A stretch of DNA of 64,000 bases from an uncultured Candidatus Saccharibacteria bacterium (GCA_964406895.1 CAYOTK010000006.1:557-64556), one strand, 5' to 3'. Shown: positions 6,044 to 41,300, counted from the stretch's first letter. The notes: generated from the letters alone by a model not told the origin. Numbers and translations are program-made.

Positions 6044-8266
6044 ATGAAACTTACTCCACAAAGCAGAGTCACAGAGATATTCCGGACTACTGATCTCCAA
6101 AAAGACGCACTGAGAAGAATGGGCATAGAAAGCATAAAAGATCTCATATATTACTTCCCCGTGAGATATGGCGACACAGCTGAAGCAAAAAATATAGACA
6201 GTCTTATTCACGGAGAGAATGTCGTCGTTTATGGCAAAATAACAAATCTCAAAACCAAGAAAAGTTTCCGAAGCAAAATACCGATGGCGCAAGGATACAT
6301 AGAAGATGAAACTGGCAAAATACCTTGTGTTTGGTTCAATCAACCCTACTTGGCCAAAATGTTTTCCGACAACATGCTTGTGAGAATAGAGGGCAAAGTT
6401 TCAGAGAGAAGGAAGAAGCCTCACTCAATAACATTAAACGAAACCCAAGAGGTTGAAGCCGAATCCGGACAATTGTATTTCTCAAATCCCAAAATAGAAA
6501 AAGTAGACAGTGTACCACTGGGTGTCGGAGATTCTCTTTTCGAAAATCAAGAATCAATACACAATCTCTATCCTGTATATCCTGAATCTCGTGGCATAAG
6601 TTCTAGTTGGATATATCACAATATTCAAAAAGTTTTCAAAGCAGGAATTCTAGAACAAATCGTAGAAACTATACCTGAAGAAGTTCTGAATAAATATCAC
6701 CTCCCTTCTATCAAAACAGCCCTTATATGGATACATGCCCCACAGAAACAAGACGACGCAATATCTGCCAGAAAAAGATTTTCATTCGAGGAAATATTCA
6801 CTATTCAACTAGGCAAACAACAAGCAAGAATTGAATATAATAAAAGTCAGTTCTATGATATTACCGTGAATCCACAACATGTCAGAGAATTCGTAAAACG
6901 TTTCCCTTTCACGGCAACACAAGCACAAATGCGTGCAATCGAAACAATCATAAGTGATATGAGTAAAGGTAAAGCCATGACAAGATTGATCGAGGGCGAT
7001 GTTGGTTCAGGCAAAACAGCGGTTGCAGCTTCTGCAACATATGCGGTCATTACGTCGAAAATGAAAGACATGCCTTCGACCAAACTGAGCGTTGCATACA
7101 TGTGCCCTACCGAAATATTAGCCACGCAACATTTCGAATCATTCATAAAATTTTTCTCTTATATGCCTGTACAAATAGGCCTTCTCACATCTTCAGGTTG
7201 CAGGAAATTCCCGTCAAAAATAAATCCAAAAGGTTGGACAGATATATCTAGGACACAACTATTGAAATGGGTTCAAAACGGCGAAATATCTGTTCTGGTA
7301 GGCACACATTCCCTCATCCAAAAATCTGTGAAATTCAAACACCTTGCATTGGCAATAATAGACGAACAACATCGTTTCGGCACATCGCAAAGGTCAAGAT
7401 TAATCAAAAGAGAAGACACAATCATATCACCCCATTTATTGACCATGACAGCTACGCCCATACCGCGCACTCTGGCTTTGACACTATACGGCGATCTAGA
7501 CATCACTTTATTAGATGAAGTACCAGCAGGAAGAAAACCTGTCATTACCGAACTTGTCCTACCTCAAGATCGAGATGCAACATATGAGAAAGTCCGAGAG
7601 GAGCTAAAGAAGGGACATCAATGTTTCGTCATATGTCCCAGAATTGATGAACCGGACCCAGAGAAAGAAATTTTCATAAATGCAAAATCAGTAAAGGAAG
7701 AAGCAAAAAGATTGAAGAAAAAAGTATTTCCAGAATATGAAATAGGCGTCTTGCACAGCAAACTCTCTCCAAAAGAAAAAGATAATGTCATGAATGATTT
7801 CAAAGATGGCAAAACACATATATTATGTTCGACCTCTGTTGTCGAGGTTGGAGTCAATGTACCGAACGCCACTGTTATTCTCATAGAAGGTGCTGAAAGA
7901 TTTGGCCTTGCGCAACTGCATCAACTCCGCGGTAGGGTTCTTAGAAGCACTGATCAAGCTTATTGCTATGTATTCACAGAAACAAATTCCAAGAAATCAA
8001 TCGATAGATTGAAGGCCTTGCAAACAGCAAAAAATGGTTTTGAATTGGCTGAAATAGACCTAAGTCAACGAGGAGCTGGCATGCTGTCGGGCGCAAAACA
8101 GTGGGGCGTATCTGATATCGCAATGGAAGCATTGAAGAATTTGAAAATGGTTGAGGCGGCGAGAAATGAAGCAGCGAGAATTATAGAGGAAGATCCACAA
8201 CTAGAGAAATATCCTCTTCTCAAAGAACGGGTCAAGGCGCATATGGTAGTCTCTCATTTTGAATAG
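6044..8266 (+). CDS. recG: ATP-dependent DNA helicase RecG
   Basis: Wedge-domain N-terminus (YYFPVRYGD), Walker A GDVGSGKT, IIDEQHRFG motif, helicase C-terminal domain; 740 aa. Confidence 0.9.
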   Translation: MKLTPQSRVTEIFRTTDLQKDALRRMGIESIKDLIYYFPVRYGDTAEAKNIDSLIHGENVVVYGKITNLKTKKSFRSKIPMAQGYIEDETGKIPCVWFNQPYLAKMFSDNMLVRIEGKVSERRKKPHSITLNETQEVEAESGQLYFSNPKIEKVDSVPLGVGDSLFENQESIHNLYPVYPESRGISSSWIYHNIQKVFKAGILEQIVETIPEEVLNKYHLPSIKTALIWIHAPQKQDDAISARKRFSFEEIFTIQLGKQQARIEYNKSQFYDITVNPQHVREFVKRFPFTATQAQMRAIETIISDMSKGKAMTRLIEGDVGSGKTAVAASATYAVITSKMKDMPSTKLSVAYMCPTEILATQHFESFIKFFSYMPVQIGLLTSSGCRKFPSKINPKGWTDISRTQLLKWVQNGEISVLVGTHSLIQKSVKFKHLALAIIDEQHRFGTSQRSRLIKREDTIISPHLLTMTATPIPRTLALTLYGDLDITLLDEVPAGRKPVITELVLPQDRDATYEKVREELKKGHQCFVICPRIDEPDPEKEIFINAKSVKEEAKRLKKKVFPEYEIGVLHSKLSPKEKDNVMNDFKDGKTHILCSTSVVEVGVNVPNATVILIEGAERFGLAQLHQLRGRVLRSTDQAYCYVFTETNSKKSIDRLKALQTAKNGFELAEIDLSQRGAGMLSGAKQWGVSDIAMEALKNLKMVEAARNEAARIIEEDPQLEKYPLLKERVKAHMVVSHFE

Positions 8267-8340
8267 TCCGCCCTCTAGGATTCGAACCTAGGACCCCAGA
8301 GGTATAAGCTCTGTGCTCTAACCAACTGAGCTAAGGGCGG
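8267..8340 (-). tRNA. tRNA-Ile with anticodon UAU (reads AUA)
   Basis: 74-nt cloverleaf on minus strand: acceptor CCGCCCT/AGGGCGG, D-arm GCTCAGTTGGTTAGAGC, anticodon arm CAGAG-CTTATAC-CTCTG (U33, anticodon TAT, A37), T-arm CTAGGTTCGAATCCTAG, discriminator A. Abuts recG stop. Confidence 0.75.
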
Positions 8341-12131: not shown

Positions 12132-12362
12132 ATTATTAATATAAAAAATTATGGTTTTTAAATGTTAAAACGCGCAATCAAAGATCAAAAACATATGCAA
12201 AAATGTCCTTCGACTACGCTTCGATCATATTATAAGATAATACATAGAGTTCGTGCCTCAGCTTCGCTCAGGGCACTCGCCTCTATTGCAATTCTCAATG
12301 TTCGTGGCACATGGTGGTTTACCACGAGCGAGTCCTTCGCGATTAGCGAAGGACGAGTCGAG

Positions 12363-12733
12363 TGGAGATGGCGGGAATCGAACCCGCGTGCAATCGAGAT
12401 TTGTCGGTTACTTCTACGATGATATCAAACTTTATCCGCAAAGCGGTTTAACAAATGTGCCCAAGAAAGTTTGCAAAAAGCACAATTGCGATCTCTATGT
12501 TTCGGGTCTTGGAGTGAGAAGTTCCACTACCCTACATCCAAGTTATTACGCCAACACTACAGTTAGGATCCCTGCAGAGTGACGGCACTTAAACAAGTGC
12601 GAATGCGAAGTCCTTGGCTCCGAAATACGGAGATACAGAAGATTTAGCATTTATGGTTTCTGTCAGATTTACGAGTTAACAGTGCTCGCATCGCATGACC
12701 GGAAATGTTCAATTGTCTAGACCGATCATCCCC
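12363..12733 (-). ncRNA. ssrA: tmRNA (SsrA)
   Basis: 5' GGGGATGATCGGTCTAGAC..., 3' GCGGGTTCGATTCCCGCCATCTCCA (T-arm and acceptor with G3:U70 alanine identity pair), located immediately downstream of smpB on the same strand. Candidate tag ORF GCT AAA ... CTT GTT TAA. Confidence 0.8.
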
Positions 12734-12788: not shown

Positions 12789-13235
12789 TTACCTGTCAAT
12801 GAACTCTCTTCTAATTTCCCTATCCACTTCTCTCTTCTTTGTGGTTTCGCGCTTGTCGAATTTCTTTTTACCACGGACAACTGCAATACTTACCTTAACT
12901 AAAGGACCCTTATTATATATTGAAATTGGCACTATTGTCAAACCCTTACTACCCTCAGCATCAGCTAGACGTCGAATTTCATCTCTAGTCAGAAGTAGGC
13001 GGCGATTTCTTCTTGGTTCATAACCTTTCGGAGTATTGTTTTCCTGATACGGTGGCAAGAATATATTCACGGCGTAAGCTTCTCCCCCACGCACGATGAC
13101 ATAGGCGCCATCTAGAGAACCTTGGCCTTTCTTTATTGATTTAACTTCGAAACCATAGAGTTCGATTCCTGCTTCGTATTTGTCGATGATTTCATAGTTA
13201 AAATTTACCTTTTTATTATCTACGAAAGTTGTCAT
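12789..13235 (-). CDS. smpB: SsrA-binding protein SmpB
   Basis: 148 aa, FNYEIIDKYEAGIELYGFEVKSIKKGQGSLDGAYV typical of SmpB; adjacent to tmRNA. Confidence 0.9.
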   Translation of the reverse strand: MTTFVDNKKVNFNYEIIDKYEAGIELYGFEVKSIKKGQGSLDGAYVIVRGGEAYAVNIFLPPYQENNTPKGYEPRRNRRLLLTRDEIRRLADAEGSKGLTIVPISIYNKGPLVKVSIAVVRGKKKFDKRETTKKREVDREIRREFIDR

Positions 13236-16220: not shown

Positions 16221-16380
16221 GGGCGACCGGAGCCACATACATAATTCAAGATTGAAACTGTTTGAGCGACCATAAATTTCTTAGAAAAAGCCGAACCGTG
16301 ATGACCTCGTGAGGCTTTTTCTTAGAAATTTAGGGAGCGAGTTTTTCAATCTTGAATTATGTATGTGGCTCCGGTCGCCC
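16221..16380. repeat. 160-bp element with perfect 37-bp terminal inverted repeats and nested inner palindrome
   Basis: gggcgaccggagccacatacataattcaagattgaaa (16221-16257) is exactly reverse-complemented at 16344-16380; inner 19-bp near-perfect IR aaatttcttagaaaaagcc / ggctttttcttagaaattt. Confidence 0.7.
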
Positions 16381-19879: not shown

Positions 19880-20473
19880 CTACAACAAACCGACTTTTTG
19901 TACAATATCGGCATGAATGTCCTGCGGTTCTCTATTACCATCGACAACTATACAATTGTATCTTGGATTTTTCTTGAAATATTCGATCGTGGGCACTACT
20001 TCTGTTTTGTACCATTGCAAACGTTTTTTGATCTCTGATTCTTCATCGTCCAATCTCTTGCGTAAAAGAAGTCTTCTCAAAGATTCTTCTTCTGTAACAT
20101 CAATATCTATGACCCATATCTTGTGTATGCCATAAAATTCAAAAGCTGAATCTAGAACTTCTGCTTCTCGGATTTTCCTAGGCGTGCCGTCAAATATTAT
20201 ATGTTCATTGCCAGTATATCTTTCGACAAGTGCTCTAACCCACATATAAACAGCAATAAATTCTGGGAATAATCCCCCCGTATCATAAAATTTCTTGGCT
20301 AATTTCTCGGTGCTTGTATTACCTTGAATAAACTGCCGTATTTCTTGTCCTTCTTGTATACATAATTGCTTTATGTTTGGATCTTTGTTTTTGAGAACTT
20401 GAGAAAGTAGTTCTACTTGTGTTCCTTTTCCACTACCTGAACGTCCCGTGAAAATAAAAGATTGTTGTTGCAT
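19880..20473 (-). CDS. adk: adenylate kinase
   Basis: P-loop GRSGSGKGTQ, IFDGTPRKIREAEVLD; position between secY and map. Confidence 0.8.
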   Translation of the reverse strand: MQQQSFIFTGRSGSGKGTQVELLSQVLKNKDPNIKQLCIQEGQEIRQFIQGNTSTEKLAKKFYDTGGLFPEFIAVYMWVRALVERYTGNEHIIFDGTPRKIREAEVLDSAFEFYGIHKIWVIDIDVTEEESLRRLLLRKRLDDEESEIKKRLQWYKTEVVPTIEYFKKNPRYNCIVVDGNREPQDIHADIVQKVGLL

Positions 20474-20504: not shown

Positions 20505-20860
20505 TGTTGAAAACACCGTTGTATTATGATTTTTGTTTGATTGCAAGGTCGCCATTCCAAATTGCAACCGTATTCGTCTTCGACAGTCCCCGTATTATTT
20601 TTGTAAAATCTCGAACTCCACTCATCATGTACGGGAATTTTCACAAAAGCCAGCTTCCAAGGCTTCAGCTGGCATTTGGAAAATTCAACCGTACATTCTT
20701 CGTGGATTATTCGAGATTTTACAAAAATAATACGGGGGCTGTTCTCGACAAATACGGGCAATTTGTTCATGGCTCAAATCGCATTGCAATTAAAAAAAAC
20801 ACATCACAACGGTGTTTTACCTTCGTGGATTATTTGAGATTTTATAAAACACTATTATGC
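20505..20860. repeat. MITE-like repeat-rich intergenic insertion between adk and secY
   Basis: Perfect 28-bp IR (20588-20615 vs 20710-20737), outer 13-bp IR aaaacaccgttgt / acaacggtgtttt (20510-20522 vs 20806-20818), 29-nt direct repeat 20698-20726 vs 20821-20849 (27/29), hairpin gccagct/agctggc 20649-20673. Confidence 0.65.
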
Positions 20861-36125: not shown

Positions 36126-37274
36126 CTATAAGCCATGCCTAGCGTCAAGACGACCCAGGACGTTTTCTCTCAATAAATTGGTTATTTTGTCTGCATCAGA
36201 CTTGGAAACCCCTTGTATCACAACCGCGTTTGATATTTCGAAATTTTTATTACTAGAGAAGTTTGGCACAGAAGTAGCGTTTTCTATTCTAACCTCTGCA
36301 ATTCCGAAAATTTTGCTTATTATATCCTGTTTGATCGTAACATCTTGAATAGTACTATATGGCATATGTTTCTCTGATAAAGAAAGCATACCGCTCCTGA
36401 AATATATATTATCGGACATGAATGAGAATTTGTAATTCTGCTTCCAGAGAAATAAGCCTATAATTCTAGCTGTAGTAGTTAACAATATTATCCCCAAGAA
36501 AACATACAATCCTCCGAAATCACCATTGTTATTGCTGACCAATATGCTTGTAGACACAATCACAGATATGGTCAGGAAACCCGCCAATATTTGGATAAGC
36601 GATATCATAAACCATTTACCAGTCAATGGATAAACATCACTTGATATTTCCTCTGATAAATTTATCTCAATATTCTTGGGTTTTTGTTCATTTGTTGTAG
36701 CTGTAGTATCACTATGCATCGTGGACATGGTTCCGCCCCTACTCACACCCACGACCTTATTTAACAAATAATCTTTAAGACCATTAGCAACATCTATATC
36801 AACCCCATCTATATGAGCAGCTATGCCAGAAGAAAAAGTTGCACTAGCAATATGAACATCACAAAGACCCATCATTCTATCTAGGATATCTTGATCCACA
36901 TAAACATCTTGAATTTTTTGCCATTGAACGTGTATTTCCGCAGGTGCAAAGACCCCCTTCTTAATAGTAAGGAAGTTGTCATCAGCTGAATAGTAATATC
37001 TTTTGATATATTCTCGGACGTATATAATATATGGCAAAATCACTATCAAAAAACCAATAATAAACAGTACTCCCGCCAAAACAAGCAGAAGTGGCACACT
37101 GAATTTCTTGCTTATGAAAATACCGACATAAACAGTCGAAGCGGTTGCCGACAATATAAAACCGAACATGAAAGCACTTATTGCTTTTTCTATGATCTTT
37201 TTCCAAAACTTTTTTGGACTAAGTGGGAAATTCTTTTGTAAATCACTAACTATATTTTGATTATTCATATACAT
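36126..37274 (-). CDS. membrane protein with tandem bacterial PH (bPH_2/YdbT-like) domains, inserted between rpmC and rplP
   Basis: 382 aa; two copies of the TM-hairpin-plus-PH-like module (e.g. FLTIKKGVFAPAEIHVQWQKIQDVYVDQDILDRMMGLCDVHIASA). Family assignment is from pattern recognition, not a search. Confidence 0.5.
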   Translation of the reverse strand: MYMNNQNIVSDLQKNFPLSPKKFWKKIIEKAISAFMFGFILSATASTVYVGIFISKKFSVPLLLVLAGVLFIIGFLIVILPYIIYVREYIKRYYYSADDNFLTIKKGVFAPAEIHVQWQKIQDVYVDQDILDRMMGLCDVHIASATFSSGIAAHIDGVDIDVANGLKDYLLNKVVGVSRGGTMSTMHSDTTATTNEQKPKNIEINLSEEISSDVYPLTGKWFMISLIQILAGFLTISVIVSTSILVSNNNGDFGGLYVFLGIILLTTTARIIGLFLWKQNYKFSFMSDNIYFRSGMLSLSEKHMPYSTIQDVTIKQDIISKIFGIAEVRIENATSVPNFSSNKNFEISNAVVIQGVSKSDADKITNLLRENVLGRLDARHGL

Positions 37275-38844: not shown

Positions 38845-39192
38845 TTATTTCTTAGTGGCTGTTGTTGCTGCTTCTTTTGCTGATTTTGCTGCTGCCATTT
38901 CGGCCTCTTTGGCTTTCATTTCGATCTCCTTCTGCATCTTACCACCATGTCTTATAAATTTGCGTGTAGGAGAAAATTCGCCCAAACGATGACCTACCAT
39001 GTCTTCTGTTACGAAAACCTCAACATGTTGTCTGCCGTTGTGAACTCCGAAGGTGAAACCTACCATTTCAGGAGCTATCTGACTTGCTCTTGCCCATGTC
39101 TTAATAACACCACCTGTTCCAGGCTTCTTGCCACCGATTTTTTTCATCAGCTTTTCATCAACGTATGGACCTTTCTTTAGTGAGCGAGCCAT
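38845..39192 (-). CDS. rpsS: 30S ribosomal protein S19 with A/K/E-rich C-terminal tail
   Basis: [19 protein letters not shown] ... [29 protein letters not shown]. Confidence 0.9.
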
Positions 39193-39374
39193 TGGTAATT
39201 GGTTATTAGTTCTTGGTAATTAGTAATCTCACAACAATAATATTATCTATATAAATATGTGTTGTTTTTGGAATAAAATAAGCTCTAACGAGCTAAGTAG
39301 CATACTAACAGAGCCGTATTTCGAAGTCAAGGCGTTATTATTGTTCCATCATTGAATATTAGAAAGTTTATGAG

Positions 39375-39540
39375 AAAACTCACGAATTGTATGATTTGAG
39401 GACCATTTCGCAAAGCACCATGTACTATTAGTTTGAATGATCACTCTCAGATGGTGCTGCGAATAGACAGCCCCATCGACTCTTCCCCTATTGTCGATGG
39501 GGCTGATCGTGGTCCTCAAATCATACAATTCGTGAGTTTT
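39375..39540. repeat. 166-bp element bounded by perfect 31-bp inverted repeats with internal 13-bp stem-loop, inserted between rpsS and rplB
   Basis: aaaactcacgaattgtatgatttgaggacca (39375-39405) is exactly reverse-complemented at 39510-39540; inner cagccccatcgac / gtcgatggggctg (39468-39480 vs 39493-39505). Confidence 0.7.
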
Positions 39541-39565
39541 CTTGATTATTTAAGTATAAAAATTA

Positions 39566-39591
39566 GGAGGGGTAATGCGCATTACCCCTCC
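39566..39591 (+). promoter_or_regulatory. 26-nt perfect palindrome sequestering an SD-like sequence and an ATG (ggaggggtaATGcgcattacccctcc), with an 11-codon mini-ORF
   Basis: Exact self-complementarity read directly; AGGAGG then ATG 6 nt later; ORF MRITPPPDCKS*. Confidence 0.3.
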
Positions 39592-40021
39592 CCCTGATTG
39601 CAAAAGCTAAGGGACTCAGGCTGTGTCCCGCGCCCATAGATATTGTTAAATGTGCTTTGAAGTTGATCACCGTCCGATACGATAACCAAATCACCTGCAT
39701 TTGGCGCTATGTGTATGTGTAAGCACGTTTGGAACGGAGCATGCTATTTATTACGGAGTTGCAACTTTTCCGTCTTCATTCTGCACGTCGCTCCAAAAAC
39801 ACCGACACATCCACCGTGTCCTTTGGGCCCATGACACAACAGATGATATTTGGAATATAGCATTTTGCAAAGATAAATCAAATCGATAAATTGTAATATA
39901 GAAATATTGATGCTTGGAAAAAACACAAAAAGTCCTGCATTTTGTATTTTTCCTTATTGTTACCAATATTATTTATGAAACACGAGTTGCATCGACGTTA
40001 TTTTTATACTAGATTATATGC

Positions 40022-40423
40022 ATGACCATAGACACAAAATCTCACTCAACTAAAATAAAATCACCATATAATATATTCTATATACCGCATATTTATTGGT
40101 TTGGCTTAACTACCAGAATATGTCTATATGCTTTAGCACTATTTTACTTTATATCCTACAACTATAAGATAGTTGTCAGTGCACACAATACATCCTCATC
40201 AAATTCATTAATTATAATGATTGTTACAATTGTTGGGATTATAGGAATGTTTGCTGGATTATTTTTTATTGAAAAATCTAGACGTTACATAATACTATCT
40301 TTTTGGGCGGCATTTGGTCTACTAAGTATTATCGTGTATTTAACTTTATTGACTGTTTTACCGATATTGTCCGGGTATATATCAATTTCATTATTGTTTG
40401 GACCAGCCTTTCGCGGTTATTAG
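40022..40423 (+). CDS. small hydrophobic membrane protein (133 aa), opposite strand to the r-protein genes
   Basis: Three or four predicted TM helices; AT-rich; no recognisable motif. Confidence 0.35.
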   Translation: MTIDTKSHSTKIKSPYNIFYIPHIYWFGLTTRICLYALALFYFISYNYKIVVSAHNTSSSNSLIIMIVTIVGIIGMFAGLFFIEKSRRYIILSFWAAFGLLSIIVYLTLLTVLPILSGYISISLLFGPAFRGY

Positions 40424-40433
40424 ATTTAAACAT

Positions 40434-41300
40434 TTAACTACCACTTCTCATCAACCTACCAGGTTGTCTGCGACTAACAACAAATATATTGGAATATTTC
40501 TTAGGTGTACGTGTCTTCTGGCCCTTACCTGCTGGTTTACCCCAACGAGTCTTGAGTCTTCTCAAACCTCTACCTGACCTCTGTTCTCCTCCACCGTATG
40601 GGTGATCAACAGGGTTCTGAGCTGTACCACGAACAGTAGGACGAATACCCATCCAGCGGCTTCTTCCGGCCTTACCGATATTGACCAATCGTGATTCTTC
40701 GTTCGAAACAGCACCAACAGAAGCCCAAGCATCTTCGTGAACTTTACGAACTTCAGAAGAAGGCATTTTGATATGAGTATAACCAGCATCGTTTGCAACT
40801 ACCTGAGCGAATGAACCAGCGGAACGAACAAGCTTGGCACCACTTCCTGGCTTGATCTCAATATTGTATATGAAAGTACCAACTGGAATATTTTTGAGAG
40901 GCAAACGATTGCCTGTTTGTATAGGAGCCTTATCAGATACCAAGAATGAATTGCCGACTTTCATTGTCTTTGGCAAAAGTACATATCTCTTTGTACCATC
41001 TTTGTAATTGACAAGACCGATGTATCCTGTACGGAAAGGATCGTATTCTATTGTTTTGACTGTTGCTACTATATCCTTCTTGTCATACATGAAGTCTATC
41101 AAACGATAAAGTTTCTTATGACCCCCACCCTTGTGTCTAACTGTTATACGACCAAAAGCATTGCGACCCATATCGCGCTTAAATCCAACCGTCAAAGGTT
41201 TGTAAGGTTCAGAAGCTGTGACATATTCCTTGAAAGGAAGTGTTGTCATGTGTCTGCGTGATTTACTTGTTGGTCTGTATGATTTCATGTTTTTATACAA
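40434..41300 (-). CDS. rplB: 50S ribosomal protein L2
   Basis: 288 aa, ...GGGHKKLYRLIDF ... RWGKPAGKGQKTR conserved L2 C-terminal region. Confidence 0.95.
   Translation of the reverse strand: MYKNMKSYRPTSKSRRHMTTLPFKEYVTASEPYKPLTVGFKRDMGRNAFGRITVRHKGGGHKKLYRLIDFMYDKKDIVATVKTIEYDPFRTGYIGLVNYKDGTKRYVLLPKTMKVGNSFLVSDKAPIQTGNRLPLKNIPVGTFIYNIEIKPGSGAKLVRSAGSFAQVVANDAGYTHIKMPSSEVRKVHEDAWASVGAVSNEESRLVNIGKAGRSRWMGIRPTVRGTAQNPVDHPYGGGEQRSGRGLRRLKTRWGKPAGKGQKTRTPKKYSNIFVVSRRQPGRLMRSGS

Follow-up and report, generated by a model that had tools for sequence, protein, structure and literature searches.

A palindromic element with a conserved core, possibly a small extragenic DNA repeat, in the L2-S19 spacer of a split S10 operon

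The genes for ribosomal proteins L2 (rplB) and S19 (rpsS) lie more than a kilobase apart in a 64,000-nt stretch of DNA deposited from an uncultured Candidatus Saccharibacteria bacterium (GCA_964406895.1, CAYOTK010000006.1:557-64556; the whole stretch is called the window here), which raises the question of what fills this gap and whether it controls the ribosomal genes on either side. The minus strand of the window carries an S10-type cluster, with tuf and the genes for S10, L3, L4, L23, and L2 followed by those for S19, L22, S3, L16 and onwards. Open reading frame (ORF) calling placed the S19 start at 39192 and the L2 stop at 40434, leaving 1,241 nt between them, in agreement with the 1.24-kb separation described in a first-pass annotation of the sequence. 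From the L2 stop onward along the minus strand, the gap holds an ORF on the opposite strand, a candidate small RNA (sRNA) gene with its terminator, a 170-bp palindromic element that we call E1, and a promoter and leader hairpin for S19. The gap is a mosaic of a strain-specific membrane gene, a candidate sRNA gene, and one copy of E1, not a single element. We see about an even chance that E1 is a copy of a small, non-coding, extragenic palindromic DNA repeat, similar to repetitive extragenic palindromes (REPs) and REPINs or to miniature inverted-repeat transposable elements (MITEs), that has been shaped by exchange between its two arms. E1 appears to be no dedicated regulator of the ribosomal operon and to exert no specific control over S19-L22-S3. 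The genes that border the gap are as follows.

38845..39192, minus strand: rpsS (S19) coding sequence of 115 aa, called as an ORF; an identical protein with PF00203 is encoded in 23 or more public contigs.
40434..41288, minus strand: rplB (L2) coding sequence, called as an ORF; the gene-caller starts give 284 aa or 271 aa.

An inverted-repeat search delimited E1 as 170 bp (39373-39542), with perfect 33-nt inverted arms at 39373-39405 and 39510-39542 and 104 nt between them. The first-pass annotation had recognized the inverted repeat, but its dimensions (a 166-bp element with 31-bp repeats at 39375-39540) were slightly too small. The interior holds two hairpins. Hairpin 1, the internal 13-bp stem-loop noted on first pass, spans 39468-39505, with a perfect 13-bp stem (39468-39480/39493-39505) and a 12-nt loop, and hairpin 2 (39407-39463) has 13 bp with a 2-nt bulge. 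Patterns matching the E1 arms, the 13-bp hairpin, or a 26-nt palindrome located nearby arose in none of 100 dinucleotide shuffles of the window. RNA structure prediction on both strands, as proposed with the first-pass annotation, gave strong folds of E1, with energies between -99 and -102 kcal/mol (z-scores of -13.5 and -15.1), that form a very stable three-way junction on either strand. The parts of E1 are as follows.

39373..39405, no strand assigned: E1 arm on the S19 side, 33 nt; the outer ~22 nt are locus-specific and the inner 11 nt (39395-39405) belong to the core.
39406..39509, no strand assigned: E1 interior, 104 nt, with two hairpins; both orientations occur among strains.
39510..39542, no strand assigned: L2-proximal arm of E1, 33 nt; the core takes in its inner 11 nt (39510-39520).

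We compared the window with contigs encoding an identical S19 and found E1 in two lineages: lineage A, comprising the window and many JGI contigs, and lineage B, comprising ENA contigs and GCA_964641445.1. The two lineages share 57-75% third-codon-position identity in L23, L2, S19, and L22. A protein-guided S19 scan placed the nearest species representatives in the Patescibacteria, within the Paceibacteria/Parcubacteria group, and scans of genome_contigs and metagenome_contigs gave S19 identities to the nearest species of 83% over the full length and 82-87% over matched segments. Because E1 was absent from the nearest species found by these S19-guided scans, it is restricted to the two lineages.

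The arms and flanks of E1 stay collinear between lineages A and B, whereas the interior is inverted. The window, eight lineage-A contigs from eight samples, and the contig L009 carry one orientation, and six lineage-B contigs from six samples, assembled with SPAdes and MEGAHIT, carry its exact reverse complement, so that orientation follows lineage apart from L009 (8/8 lineage-A contigs and 6/6 lineage-B contigs). An assembler could set the orientation of such an interior arbitrarily if the repeats exceeded its k-mer, and Logan contigs, built with k = 31, do break exactly at the repeats. The two exceptional states, that of L009 for E1 and that of the window for a second element at 16221-16380 (described below), each come from one assembly. 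However, the final k-mers of MEGAHIT (k141) and SPAdes exceed 33-37 nt, and the orientation is reproduced within lineages by independent samples and two assemblers. This reproducibility excludes an artefact for the difference between lineages A and B, though not strictly for the two single-contig exceptions, and we regard an assembly artefact as highly improbable.

The arms of E1 have changed between the lineages while remaining paired: 11 of 31 arm pairs are altered on both sides with complementarity kept. The changed arms contain no G-U pairs, save one in the row for L011, which was re-flipped by hand, and the few broken pairs are GG, CA, CU, UU, and AC. Changes in the arms occur at approximately the neutral rate and avoid wobble intermediates, and matched changes are seen even among strains that are very closely related. 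In contrast, none of the 36 interior pairs has changed on both sides, and the interior is 98% identical between the lineages, compared with third-codon-position identities of 57-75% in neighbouring genes and with flanks that cannot be aligned. Its few changes fall in loops or yield G-U on one strand.

We propose that the two arms swap sequence at the DNA level, either by template switching on a replication hairpin or by recombination between the arms. Such an exchange would keep the arms complementary while their sequence drifts, could lengthen the stem into the flanks, and may now and then invert the interior. Template switching on hairpins is known to create perfect stems with several compensatory changes at a time, to lengthen stems, and to invert loops (PMC8794818), and would therefore produce locus-specific arms and a flip-flop of the interior with no dedicated enzyme. 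E1 resembles the products of template switching, known as quasipalindromes, in its perfect long stems, joint compensatory changes, stem extension, and loop inversion, but the documented loop inversions cover a few nucleotides, compared with 86-104 nt here (PMC8794818). Template switching also accounts for how E1 evolves, but not for the conservation and repetition of its core.

That the core is repeated emerged from a search with a short ORF running through the E1 interior, which led by way of P0244 to the contig L271. A copy of the E1 core lies at 1786-1961 of L271, between convergent genes for a His_Phos_1 protein and enolase. Its interior has 1 mismatch in 104 and it has the same 11-nt ends (TTTGGAGACCA...), whereas its outer arms, 36 nt long and 94% complementary, are unrelated to those of E1. 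Since L271 shares only the interior and the 11-nt ends, the repeated unit is a core of ~126 bp, in which 11-bp terminal inverted repeats (TTTGRRGACCA) surround the 104-bp interior with its two hairpins, and the long arms are particular to each locus. The core would sit midway in a longer, near-perfect inverted repeat that differs from locus to locus. The source metagenome of L271 (3300045394) also holds lineage-A contigs.

The search for further copies suggested on first pass thus yielded the core at the enolase locus, with a different outer arm sequence, and E1 is not the feature lacking additional copies for which the first-pass annotation would have abandoned its interpretation. We found no further copy of the core in the window and no diverged copy in 2 Mb of fetched loci searched with an nhmmer profile. 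Exact-pattern scans of metagenome_contigs and viral_contigs for E1 gave no match, nor did blastn against phage and plasmid collections. A Pfam scan of 40 ORFs in the window revealed no recombinase, invertase, transposase, RAYT (REP-associated tyrosine transposase), or Y1 domain, and the gene lists of the related contigs' neighbourhoods contained no recombinase genes.

Among the interpretations offered on first pass, a remnant of a MITE or insertion sequence came closest. In its classical form, this would be an element moved by a DDE transposase, with the 33-bp repeats as its terminal inverted repeats, and the small size, the terminal inverted repeats, the intergenic position, and the second core copy at another locus are all in keeping with it. 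However, the long repeats are wholly different at the two loci, the inner 11 nt alone being common and the outer 22-25 nt differing; no direct target-site duplication was found at either the S19 or the enolase locus, where the flanks are inverted, not direct; and the window holds no other copy and no related transposase near E1. With no match in phage, plasmid, and viral collections either, we consider such a remnant distinctly improbable.

The stability of the E1 fold brings up another explanation, a functional structured RNA in which the 33-bp arms would pair as a stem for closure or processing (by RNase III, for instance) and the 104-nt interior would be a functional RNA or protein-binding domain, so as to insulate or regulate between the two halves of the S10 operon. 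The very stable three-way junction formed by either strand is consistent with this, as is the placement of the few interior changes, and processed RNAs likewise combine an invariant interior with a stem that varies yet stays paired. However, with an intrinsic terminator on its upstream side and the S19 promoter on its downstream side, E1 has no promoter to drive it, and the inversion places the opposite strand in the sense transcript of lineage B. Moreover, the 11 double arm changes with no G-U intermediate and the non-wobble mismatches point to exchange at the DNA level, and E1 has no Rfam match and no conserved ORF or strand signal. We find a functional RNA unlikely, and the first-pass proposal of a structured RNA controlling the distal S10 operon is unsupported for E1, given its position between terminator and promoter, its inversion, its avoidance of G-U pairs, and its copy between convergent genes. 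Because of the matched arm changes, the inversion, the terminator-promoter position, and the second copy between convergent genes, a palindromic repeat at the DNA level accounts for the data better than an RNA does.

Rfam searches at gathering and at permissive thresholds gave no match in the gap, the best being no better than E = 5 over 39150-40480, and the ribosomal protein leader, 6S, signal recognition particle (SRP), RNase P, and ribozyme families had no match in that interval. The Rfam matches in the whole window were restricted to transfer-messenger RNA (tmRNA) and one tRNA, and ARAGORN found nothing in the gap. Several specific identities for E1 were tried and set aside. A coding sequence was rejected on the ground that the ORF frame and length differ between lineages, a retron msr-msd on the ground that the S19 promoter lies downstream of E1 and the ORFs scanned contain no reverse transcriptase domain, and a hammerhead or other ribozyme, 6S, SRP, or RNase P RNA for want of core motifs and an Rfam match.

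The existence of both orientations, with boundaries exactly at the inverted repeats (10 sequences versus six contigs), would also be expected of a programmed inversion switch (inverton), in which the 104-bp segment would be the target of an unlinked site-specific recombinase. In the orientation of the window, such a switch would create a second promoter toward S19-L22-S3, which in the other orientation would direct antisense transcription of the sRNA and L2; E1 and the element at 16221-16380 would then be two of several switches. The latter element is also flipped, the E1 interior is strongly conserved, and a 170-bp length with 33-bp repeats just upstream of a gene is like that of known switches. 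A promoter-like sequence also straddles the junction of interior and arm, at one end only.

39386..39413, minus strand: promoter-like TTGCGA-16-TACAAT, a weak lead; its -35 lies in the E1 interior and its -10 in the arm, and it points to S19.

However, this hybrid promoter was flagged in lineage A but not in lineage B, and promoter-like matches in the region do not exceed those in shuffles (9 versus 6.7). The orientation is lineage-fixed apart from L009, with no variation among samples, and no recombinase gene was found in the 64 kb or in the related-contig neighbourhoods. The arms differ between the lineages, and those of the three inverted-repeat elements of the window have no common motif; matches of the E1 arms to Xer/dif-like or lox-like dyad symmetry, judged by eye, are weak and partial. 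Finally, the enolase copy and the element at 16221-16380 lie between convergent genes, where a promoter switch would have no target. Known invertons include fimS, the flgB and cwpV switches of C. difficile, and the capsule promoters of Bacteroides. E1 is like them in having a segment within ~100-300 bp, inverted repeats within 9-35 bp, both orientations, and a position just upstream of a transcription unit, but unlike them it comes with no invertase gene in the window or in the related-contig gene lists, is lineage-fixed, and has another copy with nothing to switch. An inverton is, in our estimate, rather unlikely.

As a DNA repeat, E1 would occupy a dispensable spacer that runs from a terminator, of L2 or of the sRNA, to the separate and conserved S19 promoter, and it would be located in this gap because the S10 operon of the clade was already split there. 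Any effect on expression is probably generic and independent of orientation. The likeliest role may be that of a stable hairpin at the 3′ end of upstream read-through transcripts, or of a protein-binding site, and such a hairpin could act as a back-up terminator, a 3′ stabilizer, or an RNase III target.

The REP and bacterial interspersed mosaic element (BIME) sequences and the REPINs of proteobacteria are short, multi-copy extragenic palindromes that occur within operons, in the spacers of convergent genes, and at 3′ gene ends, and their effects, namely, mRNA 3′ stabilization and termination, are generic and orientation-independent. E1 is similar to these in being a short, non-coding extragenic palindrome with a long hairpin and in its positions. 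In REPs and REPINs, however, the arms are conserved and the spacer is variable, whereas E1 has a conserved 104-bp interior with conserved 11-bp ends and locus-specific long arms; E1 also differs in the lack of a RAYT/Y1 transposase in the window, in having two documented copies, and in its candidate phyla radiation (CPR) host. The Correia elements of Neisseria and the ERIC elements of enterobacteria are MITEs whose hairpin RNAs can be RNase III substrates and whose ends can carry promoter hexamers. E1 shares with them a length in the range of 100-170 bp, terminal inverted repeats, and a place in intergenic or intra-operon spacers, but has no TA or other target duplication, its terminal repeats are common for 11 nt only, its documented copies are few, and its interior is inverted between lineages at the same locus.

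Several observations weigh against E1 being a palindromic repeat of this kind. Its core is known at only two loci, and neither a target-site duplication nor a transposase, RAYT, or recombinase gene in the 64-kb window accompanies it. E1 is conserved in its interior rather than in its long arms, whereas classical MITEs and REPINs conserve their terminal repeats, and the near-invariance of the interior across diverged lineages points to a sequence-specific function beyond what a palindromic repeat accounts for. Furthermore, the loops documented to be inverted by template switching are far shorter than 104 nt, the window is the single source for the flipped state of the element at 16221-16380, and L271 may come from a different genome. 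There is also a slim chance that the conserved cores, that of E1 and that shared by two other elements (the secY-adk and L060 elements described below), represent a new kind of mobile element that homes to the centres of palindromes or duplicates its flanking target inverted. Copies of such an element would acquire their own long, perfect arms and could flip-flop in the core, and its mode of transposition or propagation would be one undescribed for bacterial repeats, found in CPR bacteria.

E1 has kindred elements elsewhere. The window contains two further long inverted-repeat elements, the first of which (16221-16380) lies between the convergent L20 and RNase J genes. Its arms are perfect over 37 nt, and its 86-nt interior includes a 19-bp hairpin. 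Ten other contigs (L261-L270) carry this interior as the reverse complement of the window sequence, the window being the sole witness of its own state, and in strain L263 a C>T change in one arm is matched by G>A in the other. The second (20510-20818), between secY and adk, is nested, with a 25-nt outer repeat, 48-nt inner arms, and a 94-nt core. Homologues of its core and outer module are present just upstream of the S19 promoter in another species (L060, 5550-5923), with stems that covary and arms that differ. Long and short forms of the secY-adk element occur among strains, with L251, L253, and L254 retaining only a short hairpin with the same apical loop. A search of viral contigs with the core motif shared by the secY-adk and L060 elements returned 57 matches, which were dismissed as false positives, all being hairpin-less coding sequence of related phage genes.

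Elements with arms of at least 20 nt numbered 23 in 1.2 Mb of related loci, compared with 0 in shuffles. All of these inverted-repeat elements lie at the 3′ ends of transcription units or in terminator-to-promoter spacers, and several (L039, L165, and L060) lie between a terminator and the S19 promoter.

The question of why E1 could settle between L2 and S19 leads to the organization of the operon in the wider clade. The first-pass annotation had assumed the two genes to be universally adjacent, which does not hold for the Paceibacteria relatives: among the 57 related loci where both L2 and S19 could be placed, the gap exceeds 100 nt in 49 and is at least 1 kb in 27, often with cargo genes. 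The S10 operon is split between L2 and S19 across the clade. Directly before S19, at least 18 species carry a cassette of the form TTGACTT-N10-(G/C)CTCTG-(T/C)TA..AT-G, after which come a GCTC-loop-GAGC hairpin and a T-run. In the window, it reads as follows.

39302..39330, minus strand: S19 promoter TTGACT-17-TAGTAT with TG (extended -10); TTGACTT, CTCTG, TA, and AT-G are invariant in 18 species.
39271..39294, minus strand: S19 5′ leader hairpin AGCTC-GTTA-GAGCT followed by TATTTTATTC; a terminator-like prediction.

The large gaps and the separate S19 promoter found clade-wide indicate that the gap is no recent disruption of a universal gene pair. The leader hairpin is 100% identical in lineages A and B, and hairpin and T-run are kept before S19 in the 18 species; the hairpin varies too little for a covariation check to be informative. 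This conserved hairpin with its T-run downstream of the S19 promoter is the sole attenuator-like feature of the gap and lies outside the features listed on first pass. In E. coli, the S10 operon has an L4-controlled leader attenuator. The operon in the window is similar to that of E. coli in its gene order (S10-L3-L4-L23-L2-S19-L22-S3-L16-L29-S17) and in having a small leader hairpin with a U-run, but it is cut at L2/S19 by a terminator and a conserved internal promoter, as it is throughout the clade, and the window has no Rfam match to a ribosomal protein leader. In addition, the conserved GGCTC in the spacer of the S19 promoter repeats the 5′ half of the hairpin, which could permit an attenuator-like alternative pairing. 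The S19-type cassette also precedes a second gene in L035 (2860 and 5934), and a further example is found in L019 at 4160.

The remainder of the gap consists of the candidate sRNA gene and the orphan ORF, with the following features.

39854..39881, minus strand: predicted promoter of the candidate sRNA, TTGATT-16-TATATT with TG (extended -10).
39555..39847, minus strand: candidate structured sRNA of ~290 nt, with the gggac-N9-gtccc hairpin and an early hairpin with a T-run at 39795-39820.
39555..39592, minus strand: predicted intrinsic terminator, formed by the 26-nt palindrome and AATTTTTATA, with a 12-bp stem, a 4-nt loop, and a T-run.
40022..40423, plus strand: orphan ORF encoding a hydrophobic protein of 133 aa; a gene call in two Logan contigs identical to the window.

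The ~300-nt GC-enriched stretch with a gggac-N9-gtccc hairpin reported on first pass is indeed present, with a GC content of 0.40-0.46 against 0.28-0.34 around it. Judging from its sequence, this block is probably an accessory small-RNA gene, separate from E1. It is 96-97% identical between the lineages, which differ by a 1-nt indel that breaks the sole ORF in the block, and lineage B has a promoter at the same position (TTGCGA-17-TATATT with TG). The minimum free energy of the candidate sRNA is -101.8 kcal/mol (z = -3.9). At seven of the 89 predicted pairs, six of which lie in the RNA body, only one partner has changed and the pairing is still of a standard type (G-C/G-U or A-U/G-U), and six predicted pairs are non-standard combinations in at least one sequence. 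The candidate has no Rfam family match. In L003-type strains the block is missing and L2 is followed only by a short terminator, and in L009 most of the block is deleted.

The 26-nt perfect palindrome at 39566-39591, also seen on first pass, is on sequence grounds an ordinary intrinsic terminator that closes the candidate sRNA, which does not agree with its being read as an attenuator. In lineage B, the stem is altered on both sides and the T-run is retained. The Shine-Dalgarno sequence and ATG that had been noticed within the palindrome are not conserved, lineage B reading GGAGAGGTGGTGCGCACCACCTCTCC. The small membrane ORF on the opposite strand was confirmed as the 133-aa ORF listed above. 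It belongs to no Pfam family, a search of 1.84 billion representatives gave just two weak homologues (E = 3e-6 and 6e-5), and it is present only in window-type strains, being absent from the other strains compared.

CPR/Patescibacteria genomes are tiny and densely packed, and to our knowledge their repeat content and non-coding RNAs are almost undescribed. We found no literature on invertons, MITEs, or ribosomal-operon spacers in these bacteria. Against this background, the locus is of interest in that the S10 operon is routinely cut at L2/S19 in a whole clade and re-promoted by a conserved cassette, the cut serving as a landing site for cargo. The gap also provides a candidate new structured sRNA in a CPR bacterium. 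If E1 belongs to a new palindromic repeat family, this family would have an unusual signature, combining a conserved core, locus-specific perfect arms, matched double arm changes, and core inversion, and would offer a natural test bed for distinguishing hairpin-templated mutation from programmed inversion.

On a practical note, palindromic elements of this kind break short-read assemblies and can assemble in either orientation. Public contigs often end inside or at the edges of such elements (the start of L006 and the ends of L001, L002, L012, and L182, for example). Three JGI contigs break at one point just past hairpin 1, and the ends of L098 and L100 correspond to ~39456-39461 of the window. 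These breaks could be due to loss of coverage at hairpins or to mixed strains.

The strains also differ beyond the palindromic elements. The adk gene (window 19880-20473) of some lineage-A strains (L250, L251, and L254) is 79% identical in DNA and the adjoining map gene 94-98%, and in L250 adk follows PGK rather than secY. Between GCA_964641445.1 and the window, the L20 region is 98% identical and the S10 region 78-91%. On such comparisons, the genomes of these strains are recombination mosaics. The full-length L2 ORF and the last ORF of the window returned no record on look-up.

The ribosomal protein cluster is a hot spot of strain-specific insertions. Between L16 and L29, the window encodes a 382-aa bPH_2 membrane protein (36126-37274) and L009 has AAA_5 and VWA proteins (L009 3907-9520), and L003-type strains have ORFs of 267 aa and 999 aa between L3 and L4 (L003 3623-7510). 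Elsewhere in the window, a tRNA-Ile with the anticodon TAT is located at 8266-8340, and the tmRNA gene at 12360-12733 (tag AKSSVSPYFGAKDFAFALV) adjoins smpB at 12789-13235.

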